DNA from: Dehalococcoidia bacterium
Lineage (GTDB): Bacteria; Chloroflexota; Dehalococcoidia; Lucifugimonadales; JAGWBF01
Direction of reading: 5' to 3'
Length of the DNA: 64,000 nucleotides
Assembly: GCA_965226805.1 (NCBI GenBank)
Contig: CBDDDW010000001.1
Span: 24,233-88,232 of the forward strand
The notes under the pieces were generated by a model. The model was not told where the DNA came from. It saw nothing but the letters and a program-made list of their open reading frames with translations, and searched no databases. Both the position numbers and the translations under genes were made by a program. Shown here piece by piece: positions 4,681 through 60,562 of this stretch (positions within the stretch are counted from its first letter, which is position 1; each line of letters begins with the position of its first letter).

Positions 4681-5100
4681 GTGTACAACAAACCCATGTT
4701 GAGTCTCGATCAGGCTCGGGCAGCCATCGATGCGATGATTGCCGAGTACAACAAAAACCCCGACCGGCGCAAGGTAGATATGGCTGTGGTGGATGACGCG
4801 GGAAACCTTATCGCCTATGCTCGGATGGATAGGTGTCCGAGGCCCACCTTCGCCAGCAGGAAGGCCTACACATCAGCCTTGCGAGGGGCTGATACTGGGG
4901 CTCTCGCGGAGCAGCTCAAGAGCCAGGGTAGGACGCTGGAGTCCCTCGGCGACCCCAACCTCATCGCCATCGGAGGTGGAGTAGTAGTGGTCAACCCGAG
5001 TGACGGGGCCGTCGTCGGAGGCATCGGCGTTGGAGGACTCCCCACGGGGCAGGAGGACGAGGTGATCGCTAAGGTGGGCCTAAAGGCGCTGAACCTCTAA
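4681..5100 (+). CDS. GlcG/HbpS-like heme-binding protein (DUF336)
   Basis: Track ORF 4630-5100. The C-terminal IAIGGGVVVV...GAVVGGIGVGGLPTGQEDEVIA is the DUF336 signature. The start is probably the GTG at 4681, 6 nt after GGTGAGGTGG. The ATG at 4696 is an alternative. Confidence 0.8.
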   Translation: MYNKPMLSLDQARAAIDAMIAEYNKNPDRRKVDMAVVDDAGNLIAYARMDRCPRPTFASRKAYTSALRGADTGALAEQLKSQGRTLESLGDPNLIAIGGGVVVVNPSDGAVVGGIGVGGLPTGQEDEVIAKVGLKALNL

Positions 5101-5135
5101 CGGGCGCCCTAAGCAATAGTGGGACGATACATGGG

Positions 5136-8100
5136 CTAGGAGTCCGCTGGCCAGGGGCTTTCGGACCTGCCGAAGTTCGATGCGGCGATCGCCAGATCGA
5201 GGACGTCCACCGACCCGTCGCCGTTAATGTCCGAATCCGTATCGATTGTATTGAAGTGGTTTCCGATTATCCGCAGGTCCCGGAAATCCACGTCACCATC
5301 CCCATCGGCATCTCCTCCGGCGAGCGTGACAAGAGGCAACGCGTTGGGCTGATCGATACCCACGACTAAGCCGACCTGCCTGGCCGGCAGATACCCAGAG
5401 TGACTCGCTTCTACGTCGTAGTTGCCTGGTGGAAGGTCCACGGAAAAGCTGCCCGCTTCGTCAGTCGTAACCTCATGGACGCCGCCGGTAGCGGTGTCAG
5501 CGAATGTCACCAAGACCCCAGCATGGTTGGTCCTGCCCTGCAAGGTCACTTGGCCCGTGACCACGAAAAAGCCTGGAACCACCACCTCGGGCAGTGTCTC
5601 AATTTTCTCGTTGTTGTCTTCGGTAGACTCCGTGACCTCCTGGCCGGAGTCGGCTATGGCTTTGACCTCGTGTATGCCAACGCGAGAAGTCCAGGTCTGA
5701 GTGGCCTGGCGCTCTTGACCCGCAGTCATGTCGCCGGTGATTCTCGCCTGCCCGATGAACGCGTTGTCGATCTCAAAGCGCACGTTGAAATCCCGTGTTG
5801 TACTGTTCTCGCTGATGTTTTTCACGGTGGCAGTGAACGTCACCTCCTCTCCCGCGTTGATCCCAGGGGCCGGGACCCACGCTATGGAGATGACGACAAG
5901 GTCCGTGGCAGGGACGTTGGGCATTGTCGCGGAAAGAGTGTTGTTGTTCTCGTCGGTCTCCTCAACTGCGTTGGTCTCGTCCACGGTGGCCGTGAGAATA
6001 TGAATCCCTACCTGGGAGGTCCAGAGCTGAGACGCCACCTTGAACTGGCCGGCCGTCAACCCTCCGGTGACCAGGTAGCTTCCGATGAAGACCCCGTCCA
6101 CCTCGAACCGGACTGAGAAGTCACGCAGGGTGGCGCCGCTCCCAGTGTTCAGCAGCGTGGCGAAGACTGGGATCTCTTCCCCATCGCTGAACTGGGCCGC
6201 GGGAGACCAGGTCACCTCGAAGACGATCAGGTCCGGCGCCACCACCTCCGGCAGCTGCTCAATCAGCTGGTTGTTCTGCTCGTCCGATTCGGTTACGGCG
6301 TCGGCCTCGTCGACAACCACCGTTGCTGTGTGTATCCCACCCTCTGAGGTCCACACCCGGCTAACGCTGACCTGCTCACCCGTTGAGAGGCCGCCCGTCA
6401 CCAGACGGCTGCCGATCGCGACGCCGTCCACTTCGAACCGGACTGAGAAGTCACGCAGGGTGCTCCCTTCACCTGTGTTCACTATCAAAGCGGTAATAGA
6501 CACTTCCTGACCGTCGAATATCCCTTCTGAGGGATCGAAGTCCATGTCCAGCACCACCAGGGTCGGAAGCGGGGACCTCCGGCAGCGAGAGGGTCAAGGA
6601 GTTGTTGGCCTCGTCGGCCTCAGTGACCGCGCCTTCGCTGTCGGCGATCGCTTTCGCCGTGTAGGCGCCGACTTGGGCGGTCCAGTCGGCGGTGATCACC
6701 ACTGACTCTCCGATAGACAGCCCGCCCGTGACCAGCTCTTCAGCCAGAAAGGCGTCGTCTATCTCGAAGCGAACCAGGAAGTTGCCCGGCAAGTCCCCAC
6801 TACCGGCGTTGGACACTGTTGCAACGACAGCCACCTGCTGACCATCGACAAGGGTCTCTTGGGGGAGCGTGATAATCTGGGATACCACCAGGTCGGGAGC
6901 CCCTATCGTAGGCAGGTTCTCAACCCGATCGTTATTTCCTTCTATGGACTCTGGCACTGCATCGAACCGGTCGGCGAATGCCCTTACGTTGTGGTCACCA
7001 AGACTGGCCGTCCAGGTCTGGCTCACCTGGACCGAGCCGCCCCTGGCAAGTCCATTGACGACGCTCTGGCCGATGAAGACCCCGTCCAGTTCGAAAAAGA
7101 CGTGGAACTCCCTGGAGGTGCCGCCTTCTCCAGTGTTGACCACCGTGGCTGTGAAGTTCACCTGTTCACCGTCGTCGATACTAGCTGGCGGGGTCCACGA
7201 GATATCGGATACGACGAGGTCCGGGGAGGGGACATCGGGCAATGTCAGGACCATCTCGTTGTTGTTCCTCGTTCGACTCACCGATAGCGCCCAGCTCATC
7301 AGCGATTACAGTCAGGGTGTGGGTCCCTGGTGAGACCCCCCAGACCTGATTCACTTGCAACTGCCCTCCGGCCTCCAACCCACCCCTGACCCGATGACTC
7401 CCGATCTTTACCTGGTCCACTTTGAAGGCCACATGAAAGTCGTCGAAGATGGCCCCATCGCCTGTGTTCGCGATTGTAGCGGTAATAGTAACGATATCGC
7501 CGTCCTGGAAGTCGAGGGGAGTGACGTTGAGATCGATCACCGTCAGGTCTGTGGGCAGGGCGACCACCGAAACGCTGATCGTCCCATCTACGGAGCCGCC
7601 GTTGGAGCTGACGGTGACGGTCCCTGTATGAGTTAGGCCTCCCTCCAGGGAGCTTGTATCCGCGGTCACGACAACGGCGTCCGTCTCGGCAGTGGTTGTG
7701 CCCTGAGCGGGCCGGCGCTCACCGTCCAATCCAGGGTACCCGTACCGCAGTTCGTGAGTTCAAAGGACCCCTGAACAATATCGCCCCGGTTCAGCTCGCC
7801 GAAATTGATTGAAGGTGGGAATGGGGAGGTGCACAGTAACGGGTCCACTGGGACTATAACCGACAGCGTATGCCCTACTGCCTGGGAAGGTATCGGCCGG
7901 GACTGGGTGTCTCCCAGGACCACATCCTCCAGAGTGATATCTCCTGTCGCCCCTTCTCCACCCACTACCAGAAACGACACTCCCGCCAGGTAGCCTATGC
8001 CGGTGGCGCCGTCGATACCGGGGATATTCTGGATTATCCTGATCCTCCCTGGCGCGATCTCCATCCAGGCATCCACAGGAATCGCAGTGCCATTTATCAG

Positions 8101-8907: not shown

Positions 8908-11900
8908 TCAGGCCAGGCCTGCGATGATGCGCTCGATCATGGTGAGGTCCAGGGCGTTGACCGCCCCGTCCTCGTTGGCGTCGGCGCCAGGCGTGGGGTC
9001 GGCTAGGCCAAGGATGATCAGCTCTGTCATCGTGATGTCCAGGGCGCTGACCTGACCGTCGCCATTGGCATCGCCGGGGAGCACCGTACGGACTTCTACC
9101 GAATCGCCGAACCACGCCACGCTTATCGCGTTGGCCAGATTGTCCCCCAACACTCCGTCGACCAGCCCCAGGTCGCTGGTATCGGACCCAGTCCCGATGA
9201 CCTGGAAGTGAAGGACCGCCAGCCAGCCGGAGCCGGATATCCCAGGGACGCCGGGGACGTTCTGGACGACAACGGCATTCCCACTTCCGTCCCCAGTACT
9301 CCAGGCGTCCACGGGGATGTCGGTGCCATTGATCCGCCCGTCGGTGACATTGGTCAGCTGGAGGACCAATGGGTCATAGGTCACGGTGTAGTTGGCGGCG
9401 TCGAAATTCTCCACCTGGCTTATCCTGATAACCGCCGTGAAGCCGCCGCCCGCCAGCACGAAGGTGGGGGCGTCAACCGTAACATTGACCCCACCCGCGT
9501 CCAGTGTAGAACCGCTGGCCTCATTGGACAGAGCTGAGATGTTCGCTCCCTCGTCCGACACTGTCATCCTGAAGTACAGCATCGTGGCGGGCGGGAGCCC
9601 GGTCACGGTAAAGCCTTGGAGGAAGCCGGCGGGTTGTGGCACGGGCTCTCCCGACACTTGGGTGGCCGAATCCCAGTTTGCGTCGGTGATGGGCGACGTG
9701 GAGTATCGCAGGTCGTACGAGCTCGCCGTGCCCGAGTTGCCGTCATCGCCCACGGCGGTCCATATGAGCTCCACCGAGCTGGGCGTGAAACCGGTAGCTT
9801 CAAGGTCATCGATGGCTGCGGGCGCTACGTCGTCCCTCTCGTCGATGCGGATGTTGTCGAGATACCAGCCGTCACGCTGGTGGTTATTTATGCCACTGCT
9901 GGTGTGGGTGTCCCGGTTGTCGTCGAGGACGAACTTGATCCTGACCGAGTCCAAACCCACGAACGTGGCCGGGATGTCGATCGCGACCCTGGTCCACTCG
10001 TTCAGAGTGCCCCAATAGGTAGCGAGGGACTGCCAGGTGCCCTCCTGTCCGAAGTAGTTGGAAATGTAAATCCGGCCGCGGTCGTGCTCGTTGATCCAAT
10101 GTTGTCCATCGTGGCCACTACCGAAGTCGTAAATGACGTATTTGTGCCAGAACGTGAGCTGAGGGTTGTCAGCGCTGCTGAGGTCAATCACATTGCTTAG
10201 TACCAGCTCCGACCATGTGTCCAGCGAATAATCCCCCCGCGGGCTTTCGTGCCAGGCGTTGTCGCCTTCGAAGGAGGTTGGCACCAACCCCCAGGAGCCG
10301 GATGCCCAATTACCTCCTCCGTCTTCCATGCCGTCGAAGAACGGGTAGTCAAGGCGAGGTGGCAGGGCCTCTCTCACCGTTACATCGTCGATGTACCAGC
10401 CGTCGGCAGAGGTGCTGCCGTTAGAGCGCACCCTGAATCGGATGAGCAGACCGGCTTGGCCGGCATAGGAGGAGAGGTCCACCAGCTCTCTGACCCACCC
10501 CGGGCCGCCGCCCGTGACGAAGTACAGCTGCGTCCAACTGGCGCCGGCGTTGGTAGAGATCTCCACGTGGCCGAAGTCTCGGTTCTCTTCCAGGCTGTAT
10601 ATGTGCCAGAACTCAAGAACAGGCATCTCGGACACTGAGAGGTCGATCTCTATCTGCAATGACGTACTGACGTTGTTGACGTAGACACTGTTGGGGCTAT
10701 CGGTCCACGAGTAAACTCCACTATGAGCCTCTTCTTGGGTCAATCCCCAGGGCGAGTCGTAGAACCAGGCGCCGGACCCGCTCTCCATGTCGTCGGAGTA
10801 GGGGAATTCGACGTTGAGGGGGCCCTCGTCGATACTCACGTCATCGATGTACCAGCCATCGGCCCTGCCGCTGCTGTCCGAGTCCAGCCGGAATCTGAGG
10901 TGGATCACGTCTCCGACATATCCGCTTAGGTCCACCTTCTCCTGGTTCCAGTCCTCGATGCCGGTGGCTCTGAACACATTTACCCAGGTGGCGCCGCCGT
11001 TGTTGGAAACCTCAACGTAGCCGTAATCCCTGCCCACCTCCAGGGCCGTCCTGTGCCAGAAGGTCAGCGCTGGGGAGCCTGCCGCGGCCAATGAGATGGA
11101 TGTCGTAAGGGCCGTATTGGCGTCGTCGGCGTAAGGGCCGACGGGGCTGTCCGCCCAGGAGGTGATACCACTGTAAGCAACGCTGGAAAGGCCCCACGGA
11201 GCGCTCCACTCCCAGTTGCTGGTCGTGTCCCCTTCCATATTATCGAAGAAGGGGTATGCGACCTCTGGCAGGCTATAGATCGCCTCTACCTGGTTGCTAC
11301 CCAGGCTGTACACACCGAGGTCGTCTATGACCCATATCTTGTAACGGAATGTGTCTGGTTCCAGGATGGTGTAGACGTCGGTGAAGGACGTAATGCTCTG
11401 GTCATCGATAGTCTGTACCAGAGTGCTGTTGGTGGTGACCGTGCCCTTGCTCCGGTAGATTTCATACCGGTTAAACGTGGCATTCGTGTTCTGTGTCCAG
11501 CTCAGATCGGTGCTGTGCATGGTGACATTCGCCGGCGGGCTCACGACCACGTCCCGCGGAGCGTCCTGGATTCTCACGTCGTCGATGAACCACCCGTCTC
11601 GCTGATGGTTGTTAATGCCGCTGCTTGTGTGGGTATCTCTGTTGTCGTCCAGGACGAACTTGATCCTCACCGAGCTGAGGCCCACCCAGTCGGACAGGTC
11701 GATTTGGACCTTGGTCCAATCGTTCTGGGTTCCCCAGAAGGTGGCCAGCTGGGTCCATGTCCCACCCTGGCCGAAGAAGTTGGATACGTACACCCGGCCG
11801 CGGTCATGTTCATTGATCCAGTGTTGCCCATCGTGGCCACTACCGAAGTCGTATATGACGTACTTGTGCCAGAATATGAGCTTGGGGTTGTTGGCCGCAC

Positions 11901-14264
11901 TCAGGTCGATGACGTTGCTAAGGACCAGTTCCGACCATGTATCCAGAGCGTAGTTACCCTGCGGACTTTCGTTCCAGGACTGAATCCCGCTATGTCCCTC
12001 GGCTACATGGCCCCACGAGCCTGATATCCAATCGCCCGTCCCGCCCTCCATGTCGTCGAAGAACGGATATACTACGTCGGTTCCGGGAGTCTCATCGATG
12101 CGGATATCGTCGATCAACCAGCCGTTGGAGGCTGTGTTCGCGTTCGATTGCATTCGGAACCGGATCATCACGTTCTCTAGACCCGCGAAGTCGCCCAGGT
12201 CCACCTTCGACTCGCGCCATTCTGAGACGCCACCCGTGGCGAAGAAAACCTGCCGCCAGCTGCTTCCCCCGTTACTCGACACTTCAACAAGGATCCAGTC
12301 GGCGTTCTCTTGCACGCTGTAGATGTGCCAGAAGCTCAGGACCGGCATTATTGCAGTACCCAGGTTTATGCCGATCGTCAGCGAGGTGCTGACGCTATCG
12401 GCGTAGCTGCCCGCCTCGCTGTCAGTCCATGAGAAGTTGCCACTGTAGGAGGCCTCCTCGGTCAGTGTCCAGGGGACCTGAGGGTCCCAGTTGCCCCGGC
12501 CTCCTTCCATGTTGTCGAAGAAGGGGTAGGCTACGAGGCCGCCCGGGGCGAAGGTGGTGGCGCTCATCTCGTTGCTTGCTGTCACCGCGCCGTGGGGGTT
12601 GACAACGAAGACCTTGTAGTAGTACTCGGTCTGATTGGCCAGACCGTCATCGATGTCACCGGTTATCGTCTGGTCGGAGATGGTCCTTACCAGCGTGTCG
12701 GACAAGTCCACTCCCGGCTGGGTATCCCGGTGGATCTGGTAGGCGCCGAAGGATACGTCGTCGTTGCGGGACCACTCCAGCCGGATCTCATCCTCGCCAG
12801 GTGGAGGCTGTGGCGTGACAGACTCCAATATTACCGCTGTCGGCAGGTCCGAGATGCTCACGTCATCGATGGTCCACCCATCGGCGCCGTCAACAGCGTC
12901 GGTCACCATGCGGAAACGGACCCTTGCGAGTGGCGACTCCGCGCTCAGACCCAGTTGGACCTGGGTCCAGGTGCCCACGGTCATGCCGGTGTAGGAGGCC
13001 ACCTCTCTCCAGGTGGTCCCGTCGTTGGTGGATATCTCCACGCTAGCCAGGTCGCCGGCCAGGATGTCCAGCAAGTGCCAGAAGACAAGCTGGGAGCCGG
13101 TGGTGATGGAGATGGCGTCGGCCAGGACCAATGAGGAATCGACATCGTTTGCATAGTCCGCGCCGGGGCTGTCGGTCCAGGCCTTTGTGCCGCTGTGGGC
13201 CGAGGCGGGTGTGACCCAGTCCAGCCGTTCACGGGCTCGGGGCTCCAGTTGTTGCCAGAGGCCTCCATGTCGTCTGAGAAGGGATAGTCGATGCCAGGCA
13301 GGGTGATGCCGCTCACCTCGTTGCTGCCGCTATAGATGTCGGTGTTATCGACCACGAACACCATATAGTGGAAAGTCGTCTTCCCCGGGAGGCCGGCATC
13401 GGTATAGGAGCCGGAGTTTGGGCCGGTGAGAGTGGCCACCAGAGTATCGTTGAAGGTGACGCCCGGACTCTCGCTACGGAACACTTGGTAGCTGGCGAAG
13501 TCTGCGGCGTCGCTGGTCGACCAGGAAAGGTCCAGGGACGTATTGGTTGCGCCGGAAACCGGGTCCAGGACAACGGCTGCGGGCTGATCGTCGATGGCTA
13601 TATCGTCCAGGTACCATCCGTCCTCTACAACGCTCTCGTCCGTGTTCACCCTGAAACGGACCAGCACCGAGGCTTCTCCTCCATAAGCCGCCAGGCTTAG
13701 CTGCTCAAGGACCCACGGCTCAACAGAAGCAGCCTCCAATGGAGAACCGGGCTCCGGTGATCCGGACTCCTCGGACTTGGACGAAGCGGCCTGGGCCTCG
13801 GCGGCCAACGGGTCGACGGCGCTGCCGGAGTATGTGGCTATGATTGTCCAGGAAGCGCCATCCGAGCTGGACACCTCCACGTAGCCGAAGTCGAAGCCGC
13901 GCTCAAAGCGGTAGTGGTGCCAGAATTTTAGCTGAGGGGAAGCGGTGGCAGATAGGTCGATCGGGGAGGCAAGGGTCAGGGAGACATCCACGCTGTTGCC
14001 GTAGTAGGCGGCGGGGCTGTCAGTCCAGGAATTAACCGGGCTGTTGAAGTCATTGTTCGTCCGAGCCCACGGTGAGTCAGCGGTCCAGAAATCAGCCGTC
14101 GCTACCTCAACATCGTCGGTGAAAGGCACTGTGATGTGAGAGACCGCGGATACCGAGGATGGGGAGGACAAGTTCGGCCCTCCGAGGATGAGGGCGGTGG
14201 CGGCGAGGACCACCAATACTAACGATAGAAGCACAACGGGAGCCGCGGTTGATAGCACTCTCAC
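8908..14264 (-). CDS. giant secreted surface protein: about 7 copies of a ~180-aa MAM/lectin-like beta-sandwich module interleaved with FN3 domains, then a cohesin-like domain and C-terminal dockerin; one frame break near 13225
   Basis: Track ORFs 12981-14264 (signal peptide MRVLSTAAPVVLLSLVLVVLAA) and 8908-13131. The recurring module is YPFFDxMEGG..W....SWTDSP...L.FWH.Y....D.G.VE.S.NGG.SW. FN3 strings include YQIHRD and YEIYRS. The C-terminus is DANGDGQVSALDITM...DANEDGAVNALDLTM. The assignment of the repeated module to a family is uncertain. Confidence 0.75.
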
Positions 14265-55138: not shown

Positions 55139-55458
55139 CGGAAGAGAGATACCTGGTCAGCAGAGCGCGCTAGGCGGTTCCCACGCGATCGGAAACATAA
55201 CATAGCCCACGCTATCAACGCGCGAAGAGTAGTTTCAAGGTATCCAATGCAAGATTTTGAGAAGTTTTGACTGAGTGGCTCGGAGGCTCTTGCTAGAAGA
55301 GGGCCGATGCGTCCCATTTCCAGATTCCTGGGCCCCGGGTAAAGGTGACTTGCCAAAGATAGAAGCGCCGCATAACATGGGTGAGACCCGTGAGGTTGGA
55401 TTTCGATCAACAAGGCATGCATGAGCGCCCTCGGACTGAACAAACCCGAGGAGGAGAG

Positions 55459-55665
55459 ATGGCCACTGTTCTCATACGCAACGGCAGAGTAATCGATGGT
55501 ACTGGGAACCCGTGGTCCAGAGCCGATGTAGTGATCCGCGGCGGTTATATCGATAGGATCGGCCGGCAGATCGATAGCATAGACGGCGATCCCCCCGACG
55601 AGGTGATCGATGCAACGGGGATGTGCGTGATTGGGAGGTCACGCATGACAATTTGTGCACGCTAA
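55459..55665 (+). pseudogene. N-terminal fragment of a D-aminoacylase-type amidohydrolase
   Basis: MATVLIRNGRVIDGTGNPWSRADVVIRGGYIDRIG...EVIDATGMCV follows GAGGAGGAG. Homology stops where the PGFID.H metal motif should follow. The frame ends after 11 unrelated codons. Confidence 0.65.
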
Positions 55666-55695
55666 AATCCTACGCGACTGAGAAGGTGTTCTGGC

Positions 55696-57102
55696 ATGAA
55701 TGACGTCGAAAGAGAAGCGGTTCTCTTCATCGCGGACATATCTGGCTACACGAAGTTCATATTCTCCAACGAGAAGGAGATCGCGCATAGTCAGATGGTC
55801 ATCCGAGAACTGATCACGACGCTTCTTGAAGAAGTGAATCTTCCCTTTAAGCTCGTTAGGATTGAAGGGGACGCTATTTTTCTGTACGCCATCAAGGACG
55901 ATCCTGGTCAGCCGTGGGAAAGAGTATCTAAGAACCTCGTCTCCAATATGATGACGTTCTTCCAGGTCTTCGCGAACAAGATCTCCGAGCTAACGATTCA
56001 TAAGATCTGCAACTGTAAGGCTTGCCACAACATTGAGCAGTTGAAGCTCAAGGCAGTTGTGCACAGCGGGCGAGCCGCTTTCTATCGGGTCAACGAGCAC
56101 CAGGAGCTCACAGGAACCGGTGCGATCATTGTTCACCGGTTGCTCAAGAATTCTGTCGAGGCCGATGAATATATCATTTTGACCGAGGCGGCATACAACG
56201 AGCTGACCCTCCCTGAAGGCAAAGTGGAGCAAGGGGAGGAAACCTACGACGACATTGGCTCCATCAAGACCTACGTCTACTATCCCCCTAAGCAAGAGTC
56301 CTACGTTCCTTCCCCGGATGCCAAACCGCCGGCAGTCTTCATTGAAACGCTGCGTGCCGAAGTCGCACAAGAATATGCGCAAGTAGCGCAACATCCTGAG
56401 CTTGGCTTTCATTTCCACACCGGCAGACGACTGACCGGCATCCTGGAGTATCGGGATGAGTGGCTGGAGGGCCTTCCCGAAGAGGCGATCGAGTCCTTCG
56501 CCGGTACTGGCAACCCCTTCAATGTTGGGGAGCTCCACTCCAGCAATCGGGTTGTGGATGTTGGGTGCGGGGCCGGTTTGGACTGTCTCATCGCAGCGAA
56601 ACTGGTTGGCCATGAGGGTGAGGTCGTTGGCGTCGACATGACCAAGGAAATGATTGACAAGGCGACCAGCAATGCACGGGCGATCGGGGCCAAGAACGTC
56701 TCTTTCAAGAGAGGGTTCGTCGAGGAACTGCCCGTAGAAGACGGGTGGGCCGACGTTGTTATCTCAAATGGCGCGATCAACCTGGCCCCAGACAAGGACG
56801 AGCTCTTTCGCGAGCTGAACCGAGTCCTCAAACCTGGGGGCCGGCTCCAGGTTGCTGATATCCTCGTTGAGAGACCTATCCCGGATAGCGCCAAGCAAAA
56901 AATCGAATTGTGGACTGGTTGAATTGCCGGAGCTCTGCTGGAAGCAGAGCTGGCTGATAAGATGTCAAAGGCAGGGTTCGACGATTTCGAGATCACCTGG
57001 CGAGGAGACATCTTCAGGGATGCTTCGCTGTCAAGCGCTGCATACACCTTCGGCATCATGGGGATTACCTATCGCGCACGAAAGTGCGAGGCCGTGGAGT
57101 AG
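55696..57102 (+). CDS. DUF2652 (nucleotide-cyclase-like) domain fused to an ArsM/AS3MT-like SAM methyltransferase; in-frame TGA at 56920-56922 (candidate selenocysteine)
   Basis: N-terminus: VLFIADISGYTKFI..RIEGDAIFLY..ICNCKACHN..IVHRLLKN (DUF2652 pattern). C-terminus: VVDVGCGAGLDCL, VVISNGAINLAPDK, and LKPGGRL. The ORF continues in frame after ELWTG-TGA-IAGALLEAEL.. to TAG 57100-57102. Confidence 0.6.
56931..56951 (+). promoter_or_regulatory. SECIS-like stem-loop 8 nt downstream of the in-frame TGA
   Basis: AGCTCTGC (56931-38), loop TGGAA, then GCAGAGCT (56944-51) form a perfect 8-bp stem. The stem is extendable by GCC/GGC with a GG bulge. The apical-loop G residues lie about 18-19 nt after the UGA. 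Confidence 0.45.
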
Positions 57103-58442: not shown

Positions 58443-58838
58443 TCACTGTACCAGGCGAGCGTCGGCATCCCGTAGCCGCTCCGCGAGGACTTGTAGCAAC
58501 CTGATCCCCACCTGCGGTGCCCTCTCAAGCTGCGAGAGGAACACCCAACGGTCGATACCCAGGCACCCGACCTCGCTCACAGCGCGTACGCTCGCCGTCC
58601 TGGGCCACTCGCCCAGAAGCGCCATCTCGCCGAGGACCTCGCCGGACCCTCGTGTCGCGAGGATTAGCTGATTCTCGGTCCCCAGCGCTTTCACCACTTC
58701 TACTTCGCCCGAGAGAATTACGTAGCATCCATTTCCGGTACGACCCTCTTCGACGATCAGCTCCCCGGGATGGAATGTTTTTTGAAACGTGAAGCTGGAG
58801 ATGACATCGAGTTGGTCCTGGCTCAACCCGGAAAACAA
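58443..58838 (-). CDS. stand-alone cyclic-nucleotide-binding domain protein
   Basis: FHPGELIVEEGRTGNGCYVILSGEVEV...GEVLGEMALLGEWPRTASVRAVS is the CAP/cNMP-binding signature. There is no output domain. Confidence 0.8.
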   Translation of the reverse strand: MFSGLSQDQLDVISSFTFQKTFHPGELIVEEGRTGNGCYVILSGEVEVVKALGTENQLILATRGSGEVLGEMALLGEWPRTASVRAVSEVGCLGIDRWVFLSQLERAPQVGIRLLQVLAERLRDADARLVQ

Positions 58839-58860: not shown

Positions 58861-60562
58861 TCCACCGAAGGACGGCCTTGGGGACAGTCCTTGAAGAAGC
58901 CATCGGGTGCTCCTCTGAATCTGGGATAATGGTTTTGGAACAGAAACCAGCCCGGAAACAAGGAGCACCCAATAGATGCTGCCACAGAACAAACCCGACC
59001 GTATCCGCATCCTCTTTGACGACCATCGCCTGGTGGCCAATGCCGGCCTGCTCCTGCCGGCCACCCTAGCCCGGCACCTGGGCCTGCGGGAACTCGTCGA
59101 CCATCACCTTGACCTCGGCGGAGCGCCGGGACGGGCGAACACTGGGGACAAGATGCTGACGCTGGTCGCTTCCGCGCTGGCAGGCGGCGACTGCATCGAC
59201 GACGCCGATGCGCTGCGCGCTGGTGGGACGGTCGGTGTTCTAGGCTGCGTGGTCAAGGCGCCATCCACCCTGGGGACCTTCCTGCGCAGCTTCCGGTGGG
59301 GGCATGTCCGTCAACTCGACCGCGTGAGCCGCCAGTTGTTGGCCCGGGCCTGGGCCGCTGGGGCCGGACCCGGCGACTCGCCCCTGACCATCGACCTGGA
59401 CTCGACCATCTGCGAGACCTATGGACTGGCCAAGGAGGGAGCGCGCCACCACGGCTATACCGGCGCCCGCGGCTATCACCCGCTGCTGGCCATTGCCGCC
59501 GGCACCGGCGAGGTGCTGATGTCCCGGCTGCGCGAGGGCCGGGCCAACACCGCCCGTGGCGCCGCCCACTTCCTGCGTGAGACGGTGGGGCGGGTGCGCT
59601 ACGGCGGGGCCAGGGGACAACTCACGGTGCGGGCCGACAGCGGCTTCTACGCCCACACTGTCGTTGCCGCCTGCCGGGAAATGGATGTCCGCTTCTCTAT
59701 CACCATCCGCCAGCGCGCCAGCCTGCGGGACCTGATCGAGGCGATACCAGAGGAGGACTGGACTCCCATTCCCTACTGGATGGACGGCGCCGCCGATGTC
59801 GCCGAGACGACTTACACCCCGTTCCAGACCAAGCCGGACGCCGCGCCGGTGCGGCTCATTGTCCGGCGGGTGAAGCCGACGCCCGGTTCCCAGCTCGCCC
59901 TCTTCGCCAGATACAGCTATCACGCCTTCATCACCGACCGCGATGGGGAGACGCTGGAACTGGAGGCCGATCATCGCCGCCACGCCGAGGTCGAGAACGC
60001 CATACGCGACCTCAAGTACGGCGTCGGGCTGAACCACATGCCGTCGGGGCGCTTCGCCGCCAACGGCGCCTGGCTGGCGGTCCAGGTGATGGCGCATAAC
60101 CTGGCCCGCTGGACAGCCCGCATCGGCCTGGGTCAGCAGATCGTGACCACCAAGACCCTCAGGCGGCGGGTCTTCGCTCTGGTGGGACGGATCACCCGCT
60201 CGGCGCGCCGCCTCACTTTGCATCTCCCCCGGCGCTGGCCTTGGGAAACCCAGTTCAGTCGCGCCTTGGCCCGGCTGCAAGCCATTCCATTCCCGGCCTG
60301 ACGGCCAGCCTGCAACTGACCCAACGTCCCCGCAATCTCGCGCCACCCCGGTCGCGAGAGTCCCCTGCTGCGTATCCTCTCGCCATCCCGCGCATCGCAA
60401 CTCCCGCATAGGGCCTTAGGGGCCCTGTGCGGCGCCTGAAGACCCTCCGCCGGCCTCCCATCTACCCCAAGACCCCAGGCCATCTCCCCTGTAGCTCCCT
60501 CACCCACCCCCTTCCGCTGTCCTCACGCCGTCCATCCGTGTCCTTCGGTGGATTCGGGTTAA
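58861..60562 (+). mobile_element. IS1380-family insertion sequence
   Basis: The 23-bp terminal inverted repeats are TTAGCCCGAATCCACCGAAGGAC (58861-58883) and the reverse complement of 60540-60562, TTAACCCGAATCCACCGAAGGAC (22/23 identical). No target duplication was seen. Confidence 0.8.
58976..60301 (+). CDS. IS1380-family transposase (DDE)
   Basis: DDHRLVANAGLLLPATLARHLGL, LTIDLDSTICETYG, and GYTGARGYHPLLA are hallmark IS1380 strings. Confidence 0.9.
   Translation: MLPQNKPDRIRILFDDHRLVANAGLLLPATLARHLGLRELVDHHLDLGGAPGRANTGDKMLTLVASALAGGDCIDDADALRAGGTVGVLGCVVKAPSTLGTFLRSFRWGHVRQLDRVSRQLLARAWAAGAGPGDSPLTIDLDSTICETYGLAKEGARHHGYTGARGYHPLLAIAAGTGEVLMSRLREGRANTARGAAHFLRETVGRVRYGGARGQLTVRADSGFYAHTVVAACREMDVRFSITIRQRASLRDLIEAIPEEDWTPIPYWMDGAADVAETTYTPFQTKPDAAPVRLIVRRVKPTPGSQLALFARYSYHAFITDRDGETLELEADHRRHAEVENAIRDLKYGVGLNHMPSGRFAANGAWLAVQVMAHNLARWTARIGLGQQIVTTKTLRRRVFALVGRITRSARRLTLHLPRRWPWETQFSRALARLQAIPFPA

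Follow-up and report, generated by a model that had tools for sequence, protein, structure and literature searches.

A probable selenocysteine codon in a gene fusing DUF2652 to an ArsM-like methyltransferase in Dehalococcoidia

Results

A two-domain gene with an in-frame TGA

We analysed a 64 000-nucleotide stretch of DNA from a Dehalococcoidia bacterium (GenBank assembly GCA_965226805.1, contig CBDDDW010000001.1, positions 24 233 to 88 232 of the forward strand), referred to below as the window. One of its genes encodes a DUF2652 domain fused to a methyltransferase related to the arsenite methyltransferases ArsM and AS3MT, and is interrupted by an in-frame TGA that probably specifies selenocysteine (Sec). 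The open reading frame (ORF) 55696..56922, on the plus strand like all other features of the gene, closes with this TGA (56920-56922), and the same frame stays open for 59 further codons to a TAG at 57100-57102, as an initial annotation made from the sequence had stated. The full recoded coding sequence (CDS; 55696..57102) comprises 468 sense codons, with Sec as codon 409, and ends at the TAG; gene callers instead report two pieces, a product of 408 aa and an ORF of 46 aa. A Shine-Dalgarno-like GAGAAGG lies upstream of the CDS at 55680-55686.

The DUF2652 domain (residues 1-205; 55696..56310) matches Pfam PF10851 with 102.7 bits over residues 36-159, is predicted to have a class III nucleotidyl-cyclase fold and contains the CxCxxC motif of the family as CNCKAC (C105, C107 and C110; 56008..56025). 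The S-adenosylmethionine (SAM)-dependent, ArsM/AS3MT-like methyltransferase domain was identified with NCBIfam, PDB phmmer and Foldseek; it covers residues ~215-468 (56338..57099) and spans the TGA. Within it lie the motifs GFHFHTG (residues 237-243; 56404..56424), FAGTGNP (56497..56517) and VISNGAINL (56758..56784). The TGA is followed by a hairpin resembling a selenocysteine insertion sequence (SECIS), which falls within the codons A-L-L-E-A-E-L (56931..56951). The C-terminal 59 codons (56923..57099) would be translated only after Sec insertion, giving a predicted read-through peptide around Sec409 of IELWTG-U-IAGALLEAELADK.

Conserved coding sequence beyond the TGA

In protein searches, over 100 homologues came up, with identities of 58-97%, nearly all of them called as exactly 408 aa and ending in ...LW[TVA]G. 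Judged from the protein sequences, so exact a shared end is what a mis-called Sec codon typically leaves behind. For each GTDB species, one genome was then scanned with GFHFHTG as the retrieval pattern, yielding 504 confirmed relatives, of which the best 79 loci were retrieved. In the genomic DNA, TGA occupies this very column in all 78 unique TGA-bearing genes, within the context DLWTG-TGA-IAGALLEAEL. The loci concerned come from at least eight phyla: Chloroflexota (Anaerolineales, Dehalococcoidia and SAR202), Acidobacteriota (including Thermoanaerobaculia) and Gemmatimonadota are represented, as are Rubrobacter-type Actinomycetota, Myxococcota/Deltaproteobacteria, KSB1, Eisenbacteria and Nitrospirae. 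Relatives occur on the complete chromosomes OZ245330.1 and OZ245046.1.

Past the TGA, the frame is open for 55-160 codons in the 78 genes and carries a conserved AGFxDFEITWRxDVFxGA, whose G (codon +18), F (+19) and W (+26) vary hardly or not at all. Alignments obtained with tblastn cross the TGA and reach query residues 463-468. Measured against the window sequence, dN/dS for codons +10 to +54 is 0.10-0.37, like the upstream part (0.07-0.32 over 90 codons), values that mark purifying selection on the extension. In the aligned genes, entropy downstream of the TGA is higher at codon position 3 than at positions 1 and 2, the pattern of coding sequence. In these loci, no start codon from which a separate ORF could begin downstream is conserved, and the Met that callers use for the 46-aa ORF varies among them. 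The initial annotation had considered that close homologues might end naturally at this position; they do not, as 78 unique genes have TGA there and go on with conserved coding sequence. It had likewise allowed for an error at 56920-56922. The window lies on a 901-kb contig (ENA ERZ28763718, ctg124622), and a second, independent assembly of a related strain (L083, ERZ25069191) also has the TGA, which is therefore not an assembly error. Nor has the code been reassigned: other genes in the window end in TGA as usual, among them seven of the 11 that are supported by Pfam.

Scanning the window for other read-through TGAs gave 77 candidates, mostly spurious open frames in DNA of 55-64% GC and none of them convincing. 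Some genomes carry more than one member of the family: in the Dehalococcoidia locus L003, the fusion gene and a stand-alone paralogue lie in tandem (10001-11410 and 11467-12255), both with TGA, and L031 and L066 each have two stand-alone copies. The homologue in L015 has a TAG in its hairpin codons (GCATAG; 11171-11215) together with upstream frame disruptions, and is probably a pseudogene or an assembly error.

Cysteine at the same column

Homologues were expected to carry Cys at the position of the TGA if it encodes Sec, and several do (L079, L084, L085, L086 and P0121), as do canonical ArsMs, which have LWTGCIAGAL here. For one stand-alone member, the 120 best database relatives include 80 that end at TGA, 33 with Cys, four with Trp and one with Tyr. 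The codon in L079 is TGC. The peptide that follows Cys is looser (LLETEL, LMEPDL, LLESEL), while Sec forms retain LLEAEL, and at the DNA level the hairpin is lost in the Cys genes L079 and L086. No Cys version of the DUF2652 fusion itself occurred among the homologues compared. In gene calls from the Joint Genome Institute (JGI; P0122, P0123, P0333, P0341, P0345, P0384 and P0347), some give Trp at the TGA with LLEAEL kept and one protein has Tyr; the Trp calls are probably a gene-caller artefact of genetic code 4. A database search with the 95-residue C-terminal segment yielded 70 candidates, including a few Cys and Trp forms.

A hairpin under nucleotide-level constraint

The hairpin had been described as an 8-bp stem with a 5-nt G-containing loop at 56931-56951, 8 nt after the TGA, and such a structure is present. 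With arms at 56932-56939 and 56943-56950, a GGA loop at 56940-56942 and an A-U closing pair (56931/56951), it has 8-9 bp and a 3-nt loop; if the apical U-A pair is left unpaired, it can be drawn with 8 bp (56931-56938 with 56944-56951) and a 5-nt loop. The stem begins 8-9 nt past the TGA, and the GGA loop sits at 20-22 nt, counted from the U of UGA. In E. coli fdhF, the upper stem of the SECIS lies ~11 nt away, and the bSECISearch model expects the loop at 16-37 nt. By these values, the position and shape of the hairpin appear to fit a bacterial SECIS.

When a 61-nt stretch was folded alone, the energy was -22.5 kcal/mol (z = -2.26), with 6 of 200 shuffles equally stable. A single-sequence fold of this kind is only moderately unusual, so the significance of the hairpin rests on comparison across genomes. 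In the 78 genes, entropy at codon position 3 is very low in the stem codons (0.10 bits at +4, 0.39 at +5, 0.59 at +6, 0.10 at +8 and 0.17 at +9), against 1.4-1.9 bits at the invariant Gly -1, Leu -4, Gly +3 and Gly +18 and 1.30 bits at the loop codon +7. This freezing of synonymous sites in the stem implies a constraint on the nucleotides themselves, beyond that on the protein. RNAalifold predicted the same 8-bp helix unguided, and 98.2% of alignment cells are paired in it, compared with 31-52% when the 3' arm is slid. At pair 18-26, G-C is replaced by U-A in four of 79 aligned genes (three distinct rows, from Gemmatimonadota/Longimicrobiales) and by C-G in one (L063), each compensatory change costing one amino-acid replacement. 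The frozen third positions, the extent of pairing and the unguided recovery of the helix all agree with its initial description as SECIS-like.

The methyltransferase half and its arsenic ligands

The Pfam family Methyltransf_31 matches residues 281-415 with 115 bits, and phmmer against the PDB found 5EVJ at 5e-31. An AlphaFold (AF2) model of the 408-aa product was made (predicted local distance difference test, pLDDT, 84.2; predicted template modelling score, pTM, 0.69), and its top Foldseek matches, made by the C-terminal half, were ArsM/AS3MT structures (5EVJ, 4FR0, 6CX6 and 8XT7). Equivalences of the cysteines were taken from a HMMER alignment to the solved ArsM structures 5EVJ and 4FR0/4KW7. 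The TGA aligns with Cys224 of CmArsM (LWTG-U-IAGAL versus LYGE-C-LGGAL), the third cysteine that binds As(III), as had been proposed from the sequence motif. The other two were said to be replaced, and this too is seen in the alignment: FAGTGNP aligns with FYGCGS, placing Thr at Cys72, and VISNGAINL aligns with VISNCVCNL, placing Gly at Cys174. We take the Sec409 position to be that of Cys206 in human AS3MT. In place of the three-Cys As(III) site, the window protein has Thr, Gly and Sec, and Thr and Gly stand at the first two positions in every clade member examined, be it a fusion or a stand-alone protein, with Sec or with Cys. This methyltransferase clade keeps the motif GFHFHTGR with little or no variation, and the SAM-binding motifs are fully conserved in the fusion protein, as in the stand-alone enzymes.

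Like the canonical ArsM/AS3MT enzymes (CmArsM, 4FR0/4FS8/6CX6; CrArsM, 5EVJ; human AS3MT, 8XT7), the window protein has a Rossmann-type SAM domain followed by a C-terminal domain, with 32-40% identity over the aligned core and the shared motif LW/Y-x-x-C-[IL]-x-G-A-L. Unlike them, it keeps one of the three As(III) ligands, as Sec, and its clade occurs in the context of sulfur relay rather than of ars operons. The arsenite methyltransferase family NF008823 gave 227 bits for a cut-off of 263, and three selenoprotein families gave 230.9 bits (NF041537, ArsM/AhpD; cut-off 510), 217.6 bits (NF041536, ArsM/DUF2284; cut-off 575) and 204.9 bits (NF047649, methyltransferase/UXPK-star; cut-off 460), the alignments to these last three covering only the methyltransferase part of each profile. 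Stand-alone relatives score 221-237 bits on NF008823, again under its cut-off, and no curated NCBIfam cut-off was reached by the fusion, stand-alone or TusA-fused forms. With two of three ligands replaced and a score below the NF008823 cut-off, the protein is not a canonical arsenite methyltransferase, in agreement with the initial annotation.

The DUF2652 half

For the N-terminal half of the model, Foldseek retrieved the cyclases CyaC (1WC0-5) and CyaB (3R5G), Rv1900c and soluble guanylate cyclase (sGC), with target-normalised TM-scores (TMt) of 0.72-0.78. Within the limits of a predicted structure, this confirms a class III cyclase catalytic-domain fold for the DUF2652 half and, together with the Pfam match, upholds the first reading of this half as a cyclase-like DUF2652 domain. 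The sequence signal is fainter: the cyclase family PF00211 was not matched by the window protein and gave one weak match (E = 0.024) among 41 DUF2652 relatives, and the DUF2652 profile found nothing among PDB sequences. Over 41 diverse DUF2652 proteins, D14, D59, C105, C110, K119, H123, H147 and K151 are among the invariant residues, and C107 is nearly so conserved. D14 and D59 sit in the motifs FxDISGYT and EGDA, which resemble cyclase motifs, and the presumed cyclase Asn/Arg positions, as read from motifs rather than from an alignment, are H147 and K151. Since the CxCxxC motif is conserved in stand-alone DUF2652 proteins as well as in the fusions, it belongs to DUF2652 generally and is not an adaptation specific to the fusion.

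Architectures were surveyed in a search over 1.84 billion representatives. Most DUF2652 proteins are stand-alone, 245-300 aa long, and some are fused to membrane domains. Three distant DUF2652-methyltransferase fusions (P0220, P0291 and P0295) likewise end in ...DLW[TK][GS]; the fusion is thus old and widespread. Ramakrishnan et al. (2016; PMC4886424) described DUF2652 proteins of ~250 aa from Actinobacteria, Bacteroidetes and Proteobacteria, with the domain also present in mycobacteria; almost all were single-domain, with one polyketide-cyclase fusion, and a class III cyclase-like fold was predicted, with which our Foldseek result agrees. The window protein shares with them the strong Pfam match, the cyclase fold and the two conserved Asp residues. 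It differs in its architecture, as that paper mentions no methyltransferase fusion, selenoprotein or Chloroflexota.

Genomic neighbourhood

A gene for a ferritin-like protein (PF12902; 57158..58417, plus strand) begins 55 nt past the TAG with no terminator-like site between, and is possibly co-transcribed with the fusion gene; it adjoins the fusion gene in no other locus retrieved. On the minus strand at 58443..58838, 1.3 kb from the fusion gene, lies a gene for a stand-alone cyclic-nucleotide-binding protein (PF00027, 71 bits). In L062 (2119-2514), the gene for a homologue with 76% identity precedes the fusion gene by 12 nt. Among fusion loci, a neighbour that binds cyclic nucleotide monophosphate (cNMP) was found only in the window and L062, two related genomes, where it hints at cyclic-nucleotide signalling. 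A canonical cyclase gene lies upstream in L003. Elsewhere, the neighbours of fusion genes include rhodanese in L001 only, major facilitator superfamily (MFS) transporters in L006 and L011, redoxins in L003 and L005, and pyrroloquinoline quinone (PQQ)-like β-propellers in five loci.

Mobile elements are also present. A DDE_Tnp_1_4 transposase is encoded in the window at 58976-60301 (plus strand), and in L006 (11523-12845) a member of that insertion sequence (IS) family immediately follows the fusion gene. Upstream, the second strain (L083) carries further IS110 and DDE_3 insertions (1854-2963 and 4759-5418) that are missing from the window. Just upstream of the fusion gene, a 94-codon ORF on the plus strand (55381-55665), MATVLIRNGRVIDGTGNP, matches no Pfam family; it resembles an amidohydrolase N-terminus by eye and may be a truncated remnant.

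In 58 loci of stand-alone methyltransferases, the neighbours include an ArsR helix-turn-helix (HTH) protein fused to rhodanese (20 loci), DsrE (14), an MFS transporter (14), a metallo-β-lactamase (MBL)-fold protein (13), OsmC (11) and TusA, as a neighbour or C-terminal fusion (8). Examples are the clusters in L084 (202-3792), L085 (1887-3813) and L086 (3001-5070), and many database members of the clade are TusA fusions. Rhodanese, TusA and DsrE are sulfane-sulfur carriers, and the stand-alone members, being fused to TusA or adjoining TusA, DsrE or ArsR-rhodanese, resemble components of such relay systems; the window gene, by contrast, is without any such neighbour. A literature search found no paper linking TusA/DsrE relays with such a methyltransferase. 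Several of the partner families of the stand-alone members appear as selenoprotein families in a 2026 review (PMC13188914).

Discussion

The joint claim that the TGA at 56920-56922 is a selenocysteine codon and lies within a 468-residue protein with the two domains assigned here has, in our estimate, a probability of about 85%. Several observations weigh against it. The covariation of the hairpin is thin, with double changes at one pair only, because the stem is almost invariant. Rfam gave no match to the hairpin, nor any other family of relevance, either at the gathering threshold on the whole window or in E-value mode on 56880-57000. The hairpin is nearly intact in the Cys genes L084 and L085, so it is not strictly tied to TGA, and a rule that it is lost whenever Cys replaces Sec was dropped on account of these two genes, which may be recent Sec-to-Cys conversions. 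Finally, the machinery for Sec was not found: ARAGORN detected no tRNA-Sec in the 64-kb window or 60 loci, and tblastn with E. coli queries detected no SelA, SelB or SelD in the window and 79 loci (about 1.2 Mb), searches that covered the window and the retrieved loci rather than whole genomes. For the window, the initial annotation had reported the same absence. Dehalococcoidia metagenome-assembled genomes with 46-49 selenoproteins are on record (PMC13326102), which makes the use of Sec plausible in this lineage, and we infer that decoding in this organism is SelB-dependent.

Under the Sec reading, the hairpin at 56931-56951 would act as a bacterial SECIS, and SelB with Sec-tRNA(Sec) would decode the UGA, so that the ribosome would yield one 468-residue protein instead of a 408-residue fragment. 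Sec409 would take the place of the last substrate-binding cysteine (CmArsM Cys224) and hold the substrate via a single Se-X bond. The bound atom might be sulfane sulfur or selenium, carried on the residue in persulfide or selenosulfide form; a soft metalloid is a less likely candidate. Methylation by SAM and release of the methylated product would follow. The DUF2652 domain may have a catalytic or signalling part in this scheme.

ArsM-like enzymes with Sec at UxxG are already known. The 2026 review (PMC13188914) lists arsenite methyltransferase as a selenoprotein (NF008823, motif UxxG, WP_011987699.1), credited to Fomenko et al. 2007 (Science 315:387), and the fusion selenoproteins NF041536, NF041537 and NF047649, credited to Haft & Tolstoy 2025. 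The Sec-arsenite methyltransferase shares with the window protein its superfamily and fold, Sec at U-x-x-G (here U-I-A-G) and a UGA with a hairpin just downstream; the window protein differs in having Thr and Gly at the other As ligands, the GFHFHTGR motif and 205 residues of DUF2652 in front. The three fusion families are the best-scoring curated families for the methyltransferase half and also have Sec at UxxG in an ArsM-like domain. As listed, their partner domains (DUF2284, AhpD and UXPK-star) are C-terminal and bring a second Sec, whereas the partner here is an N-terminal DUF2652 without Sec, and the window protein scores less than half of their cut-offs. What is new is this clade of Sec-containing ArsM-like enzymes and its fusion to DUF2652, an architecture previously undescribed. 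Current annotation does not treat the clade as a family of selenoproteins: GenBank names the fusions as 408-aa ‘DUF2652 domain-containing protein’, and a member from Malonomonas rubra stands in RefSeq as a 208-aa ‘methyltransferase domain-containing protein’.

The substrate is a separate matter. The loss of Cys72 and Cys174, together with the placing of stand-alone relatives in operons with ArsR-rhodanese, TusA, DsrE, OsmC, MBL-fold and MFS proteins, leads us to suggest that sulfane sulfur or selenium is more likely than As(III), a choice that is tentative and on which we would put the odds at somewhat below even. Two points count against it: fusion-type loci are without conserved neighbours, and the idea rests on the neighbours of stand-alone paralogues, carried to the window gene by homology alone. 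We regard as unlikely the broadest form of this proposal, in which a large unannotated clade of wide phylogenetic spread, made up of ArsM-like enzymes with a single Sec or Cys, methylates sulfane sulfur or selenium delivered by a relay, and the DUF2652 fusion senses or signals the same species via cyclic nucleotides.

The window protein could instead be a selenoprotein with an ordinary function, methylating arsenite or methylarsenite in arsenic detoxification. Its best sequence and structure matches are indeed ArsM/AS3MT, ArsR-family regulators and MFS exporters lie near the stand-alone relatives, and the known Sec-ArsM families place Sec at the same UxxG. However, binding of As(III) and methylarsenite (MAs(III)) by ArsM requires at least Cys174 and Cys224, and Thr and Gly replace Cys72 and Cys174 throughout the clade members examined. 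The NF008823 scores (227-236) fall under the cut-off of 263, and the ArsR concerned is fused to rhodanese, in the company of TusA, DsrE and OsmC and not of ArsB, Acr3 or ArsC. For these reasons, we think a role in arsenic detoxification quite improbable.

A further alternative is that the methyltransferase-like half serves as a Sec-based sensor controlling a DUF2652 nucleotide cyclase, whose signal the nearby cNMP-binding protein reads. The class III cyclase fold fits this idea, as do the invariant D14 and D59 at what may be the positions where cyclases bind metals, the cNMP-binding gene 1.3 kb away with its homologue adjoining the fusion gene in L062, and the canonical cyclase upstream in L003. 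Yet the SAM-binding motifs are as fully conserved as in the stand-alone enzymes, PF00211 is matched weakly by one of 41 DUF2652 proteins and the DUF2652 profile matches no PDB cyclase sequence. The presumed Asn/Arg pair is His147/Lys151 (on a reading of motifs, not an alignment), and the cNMP-binding neighbour is confined to two related genomes. We consider such a sensor improbable to a marked degree.

The UGA might also be read through as Trp, Cys or Gly by a near-cognate or suppressor tRNA, with the hairpin as a mere stimulator of read-through. The lack of Sec machinery in the window and loci would fit, and JGI pipelines gave Trp at the codon in several contigs; these calls, however, retain LLEAEL and seem to be artefacts of genetic code 4. 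At least eight phyla share the TGA, TGA is otherwise a normal stop in the window, the replacement in homologues is Cys, the classical partner of Sec, and accepted Sec-ArsM families use this position, all of which makes read-through without Sec very improbable. That the TGA genuinely ends translation, or reflects a nonsense lesion or a mistake in sequencing, leaving a 408-aa product and a downstream remnant or separate small gene, accords with the gene callers and with GenBank/RefSeq, which annotate a stop there, and with the other in-frame stops reported in the window by the initial annotation, but has next to no probability given the identical TGA in 78 of 78 unique TGA-bearing genes and two independent assemblies, purifying selection on a downstream frame with no conserved start codon, and a truncated product that would lose the C-terminal 59 residues that align with ArsM structures.

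With TGA as a Sec codon, hundreds of genomes carry this gene truncated at that codon, and the entries could be put right by a family model that makes an exception for Sec. The corrected annotation would add to the known selenoproteomes of Chloroflexota, Acidobacteriota and Gemmatimonadota from soil and sea. The protein is an ArsM-type enzyme with one remaining arsenic ligand, upgraded to Sec, and the links of its relatives to TusA, DsrE and rhodanese point to possible persulfide or selenide methylation. Such methylation, if true, would bear on microbial volatile sulfur and selenium compounds, and a relay-fed substrate would mean that methylated sulfur or selenium compounds can arise by an enzymatic route not known before. 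The fusion also gives a functional handle on DUF2652, a domain that is present in mycobacteria as well (PMC4886424).

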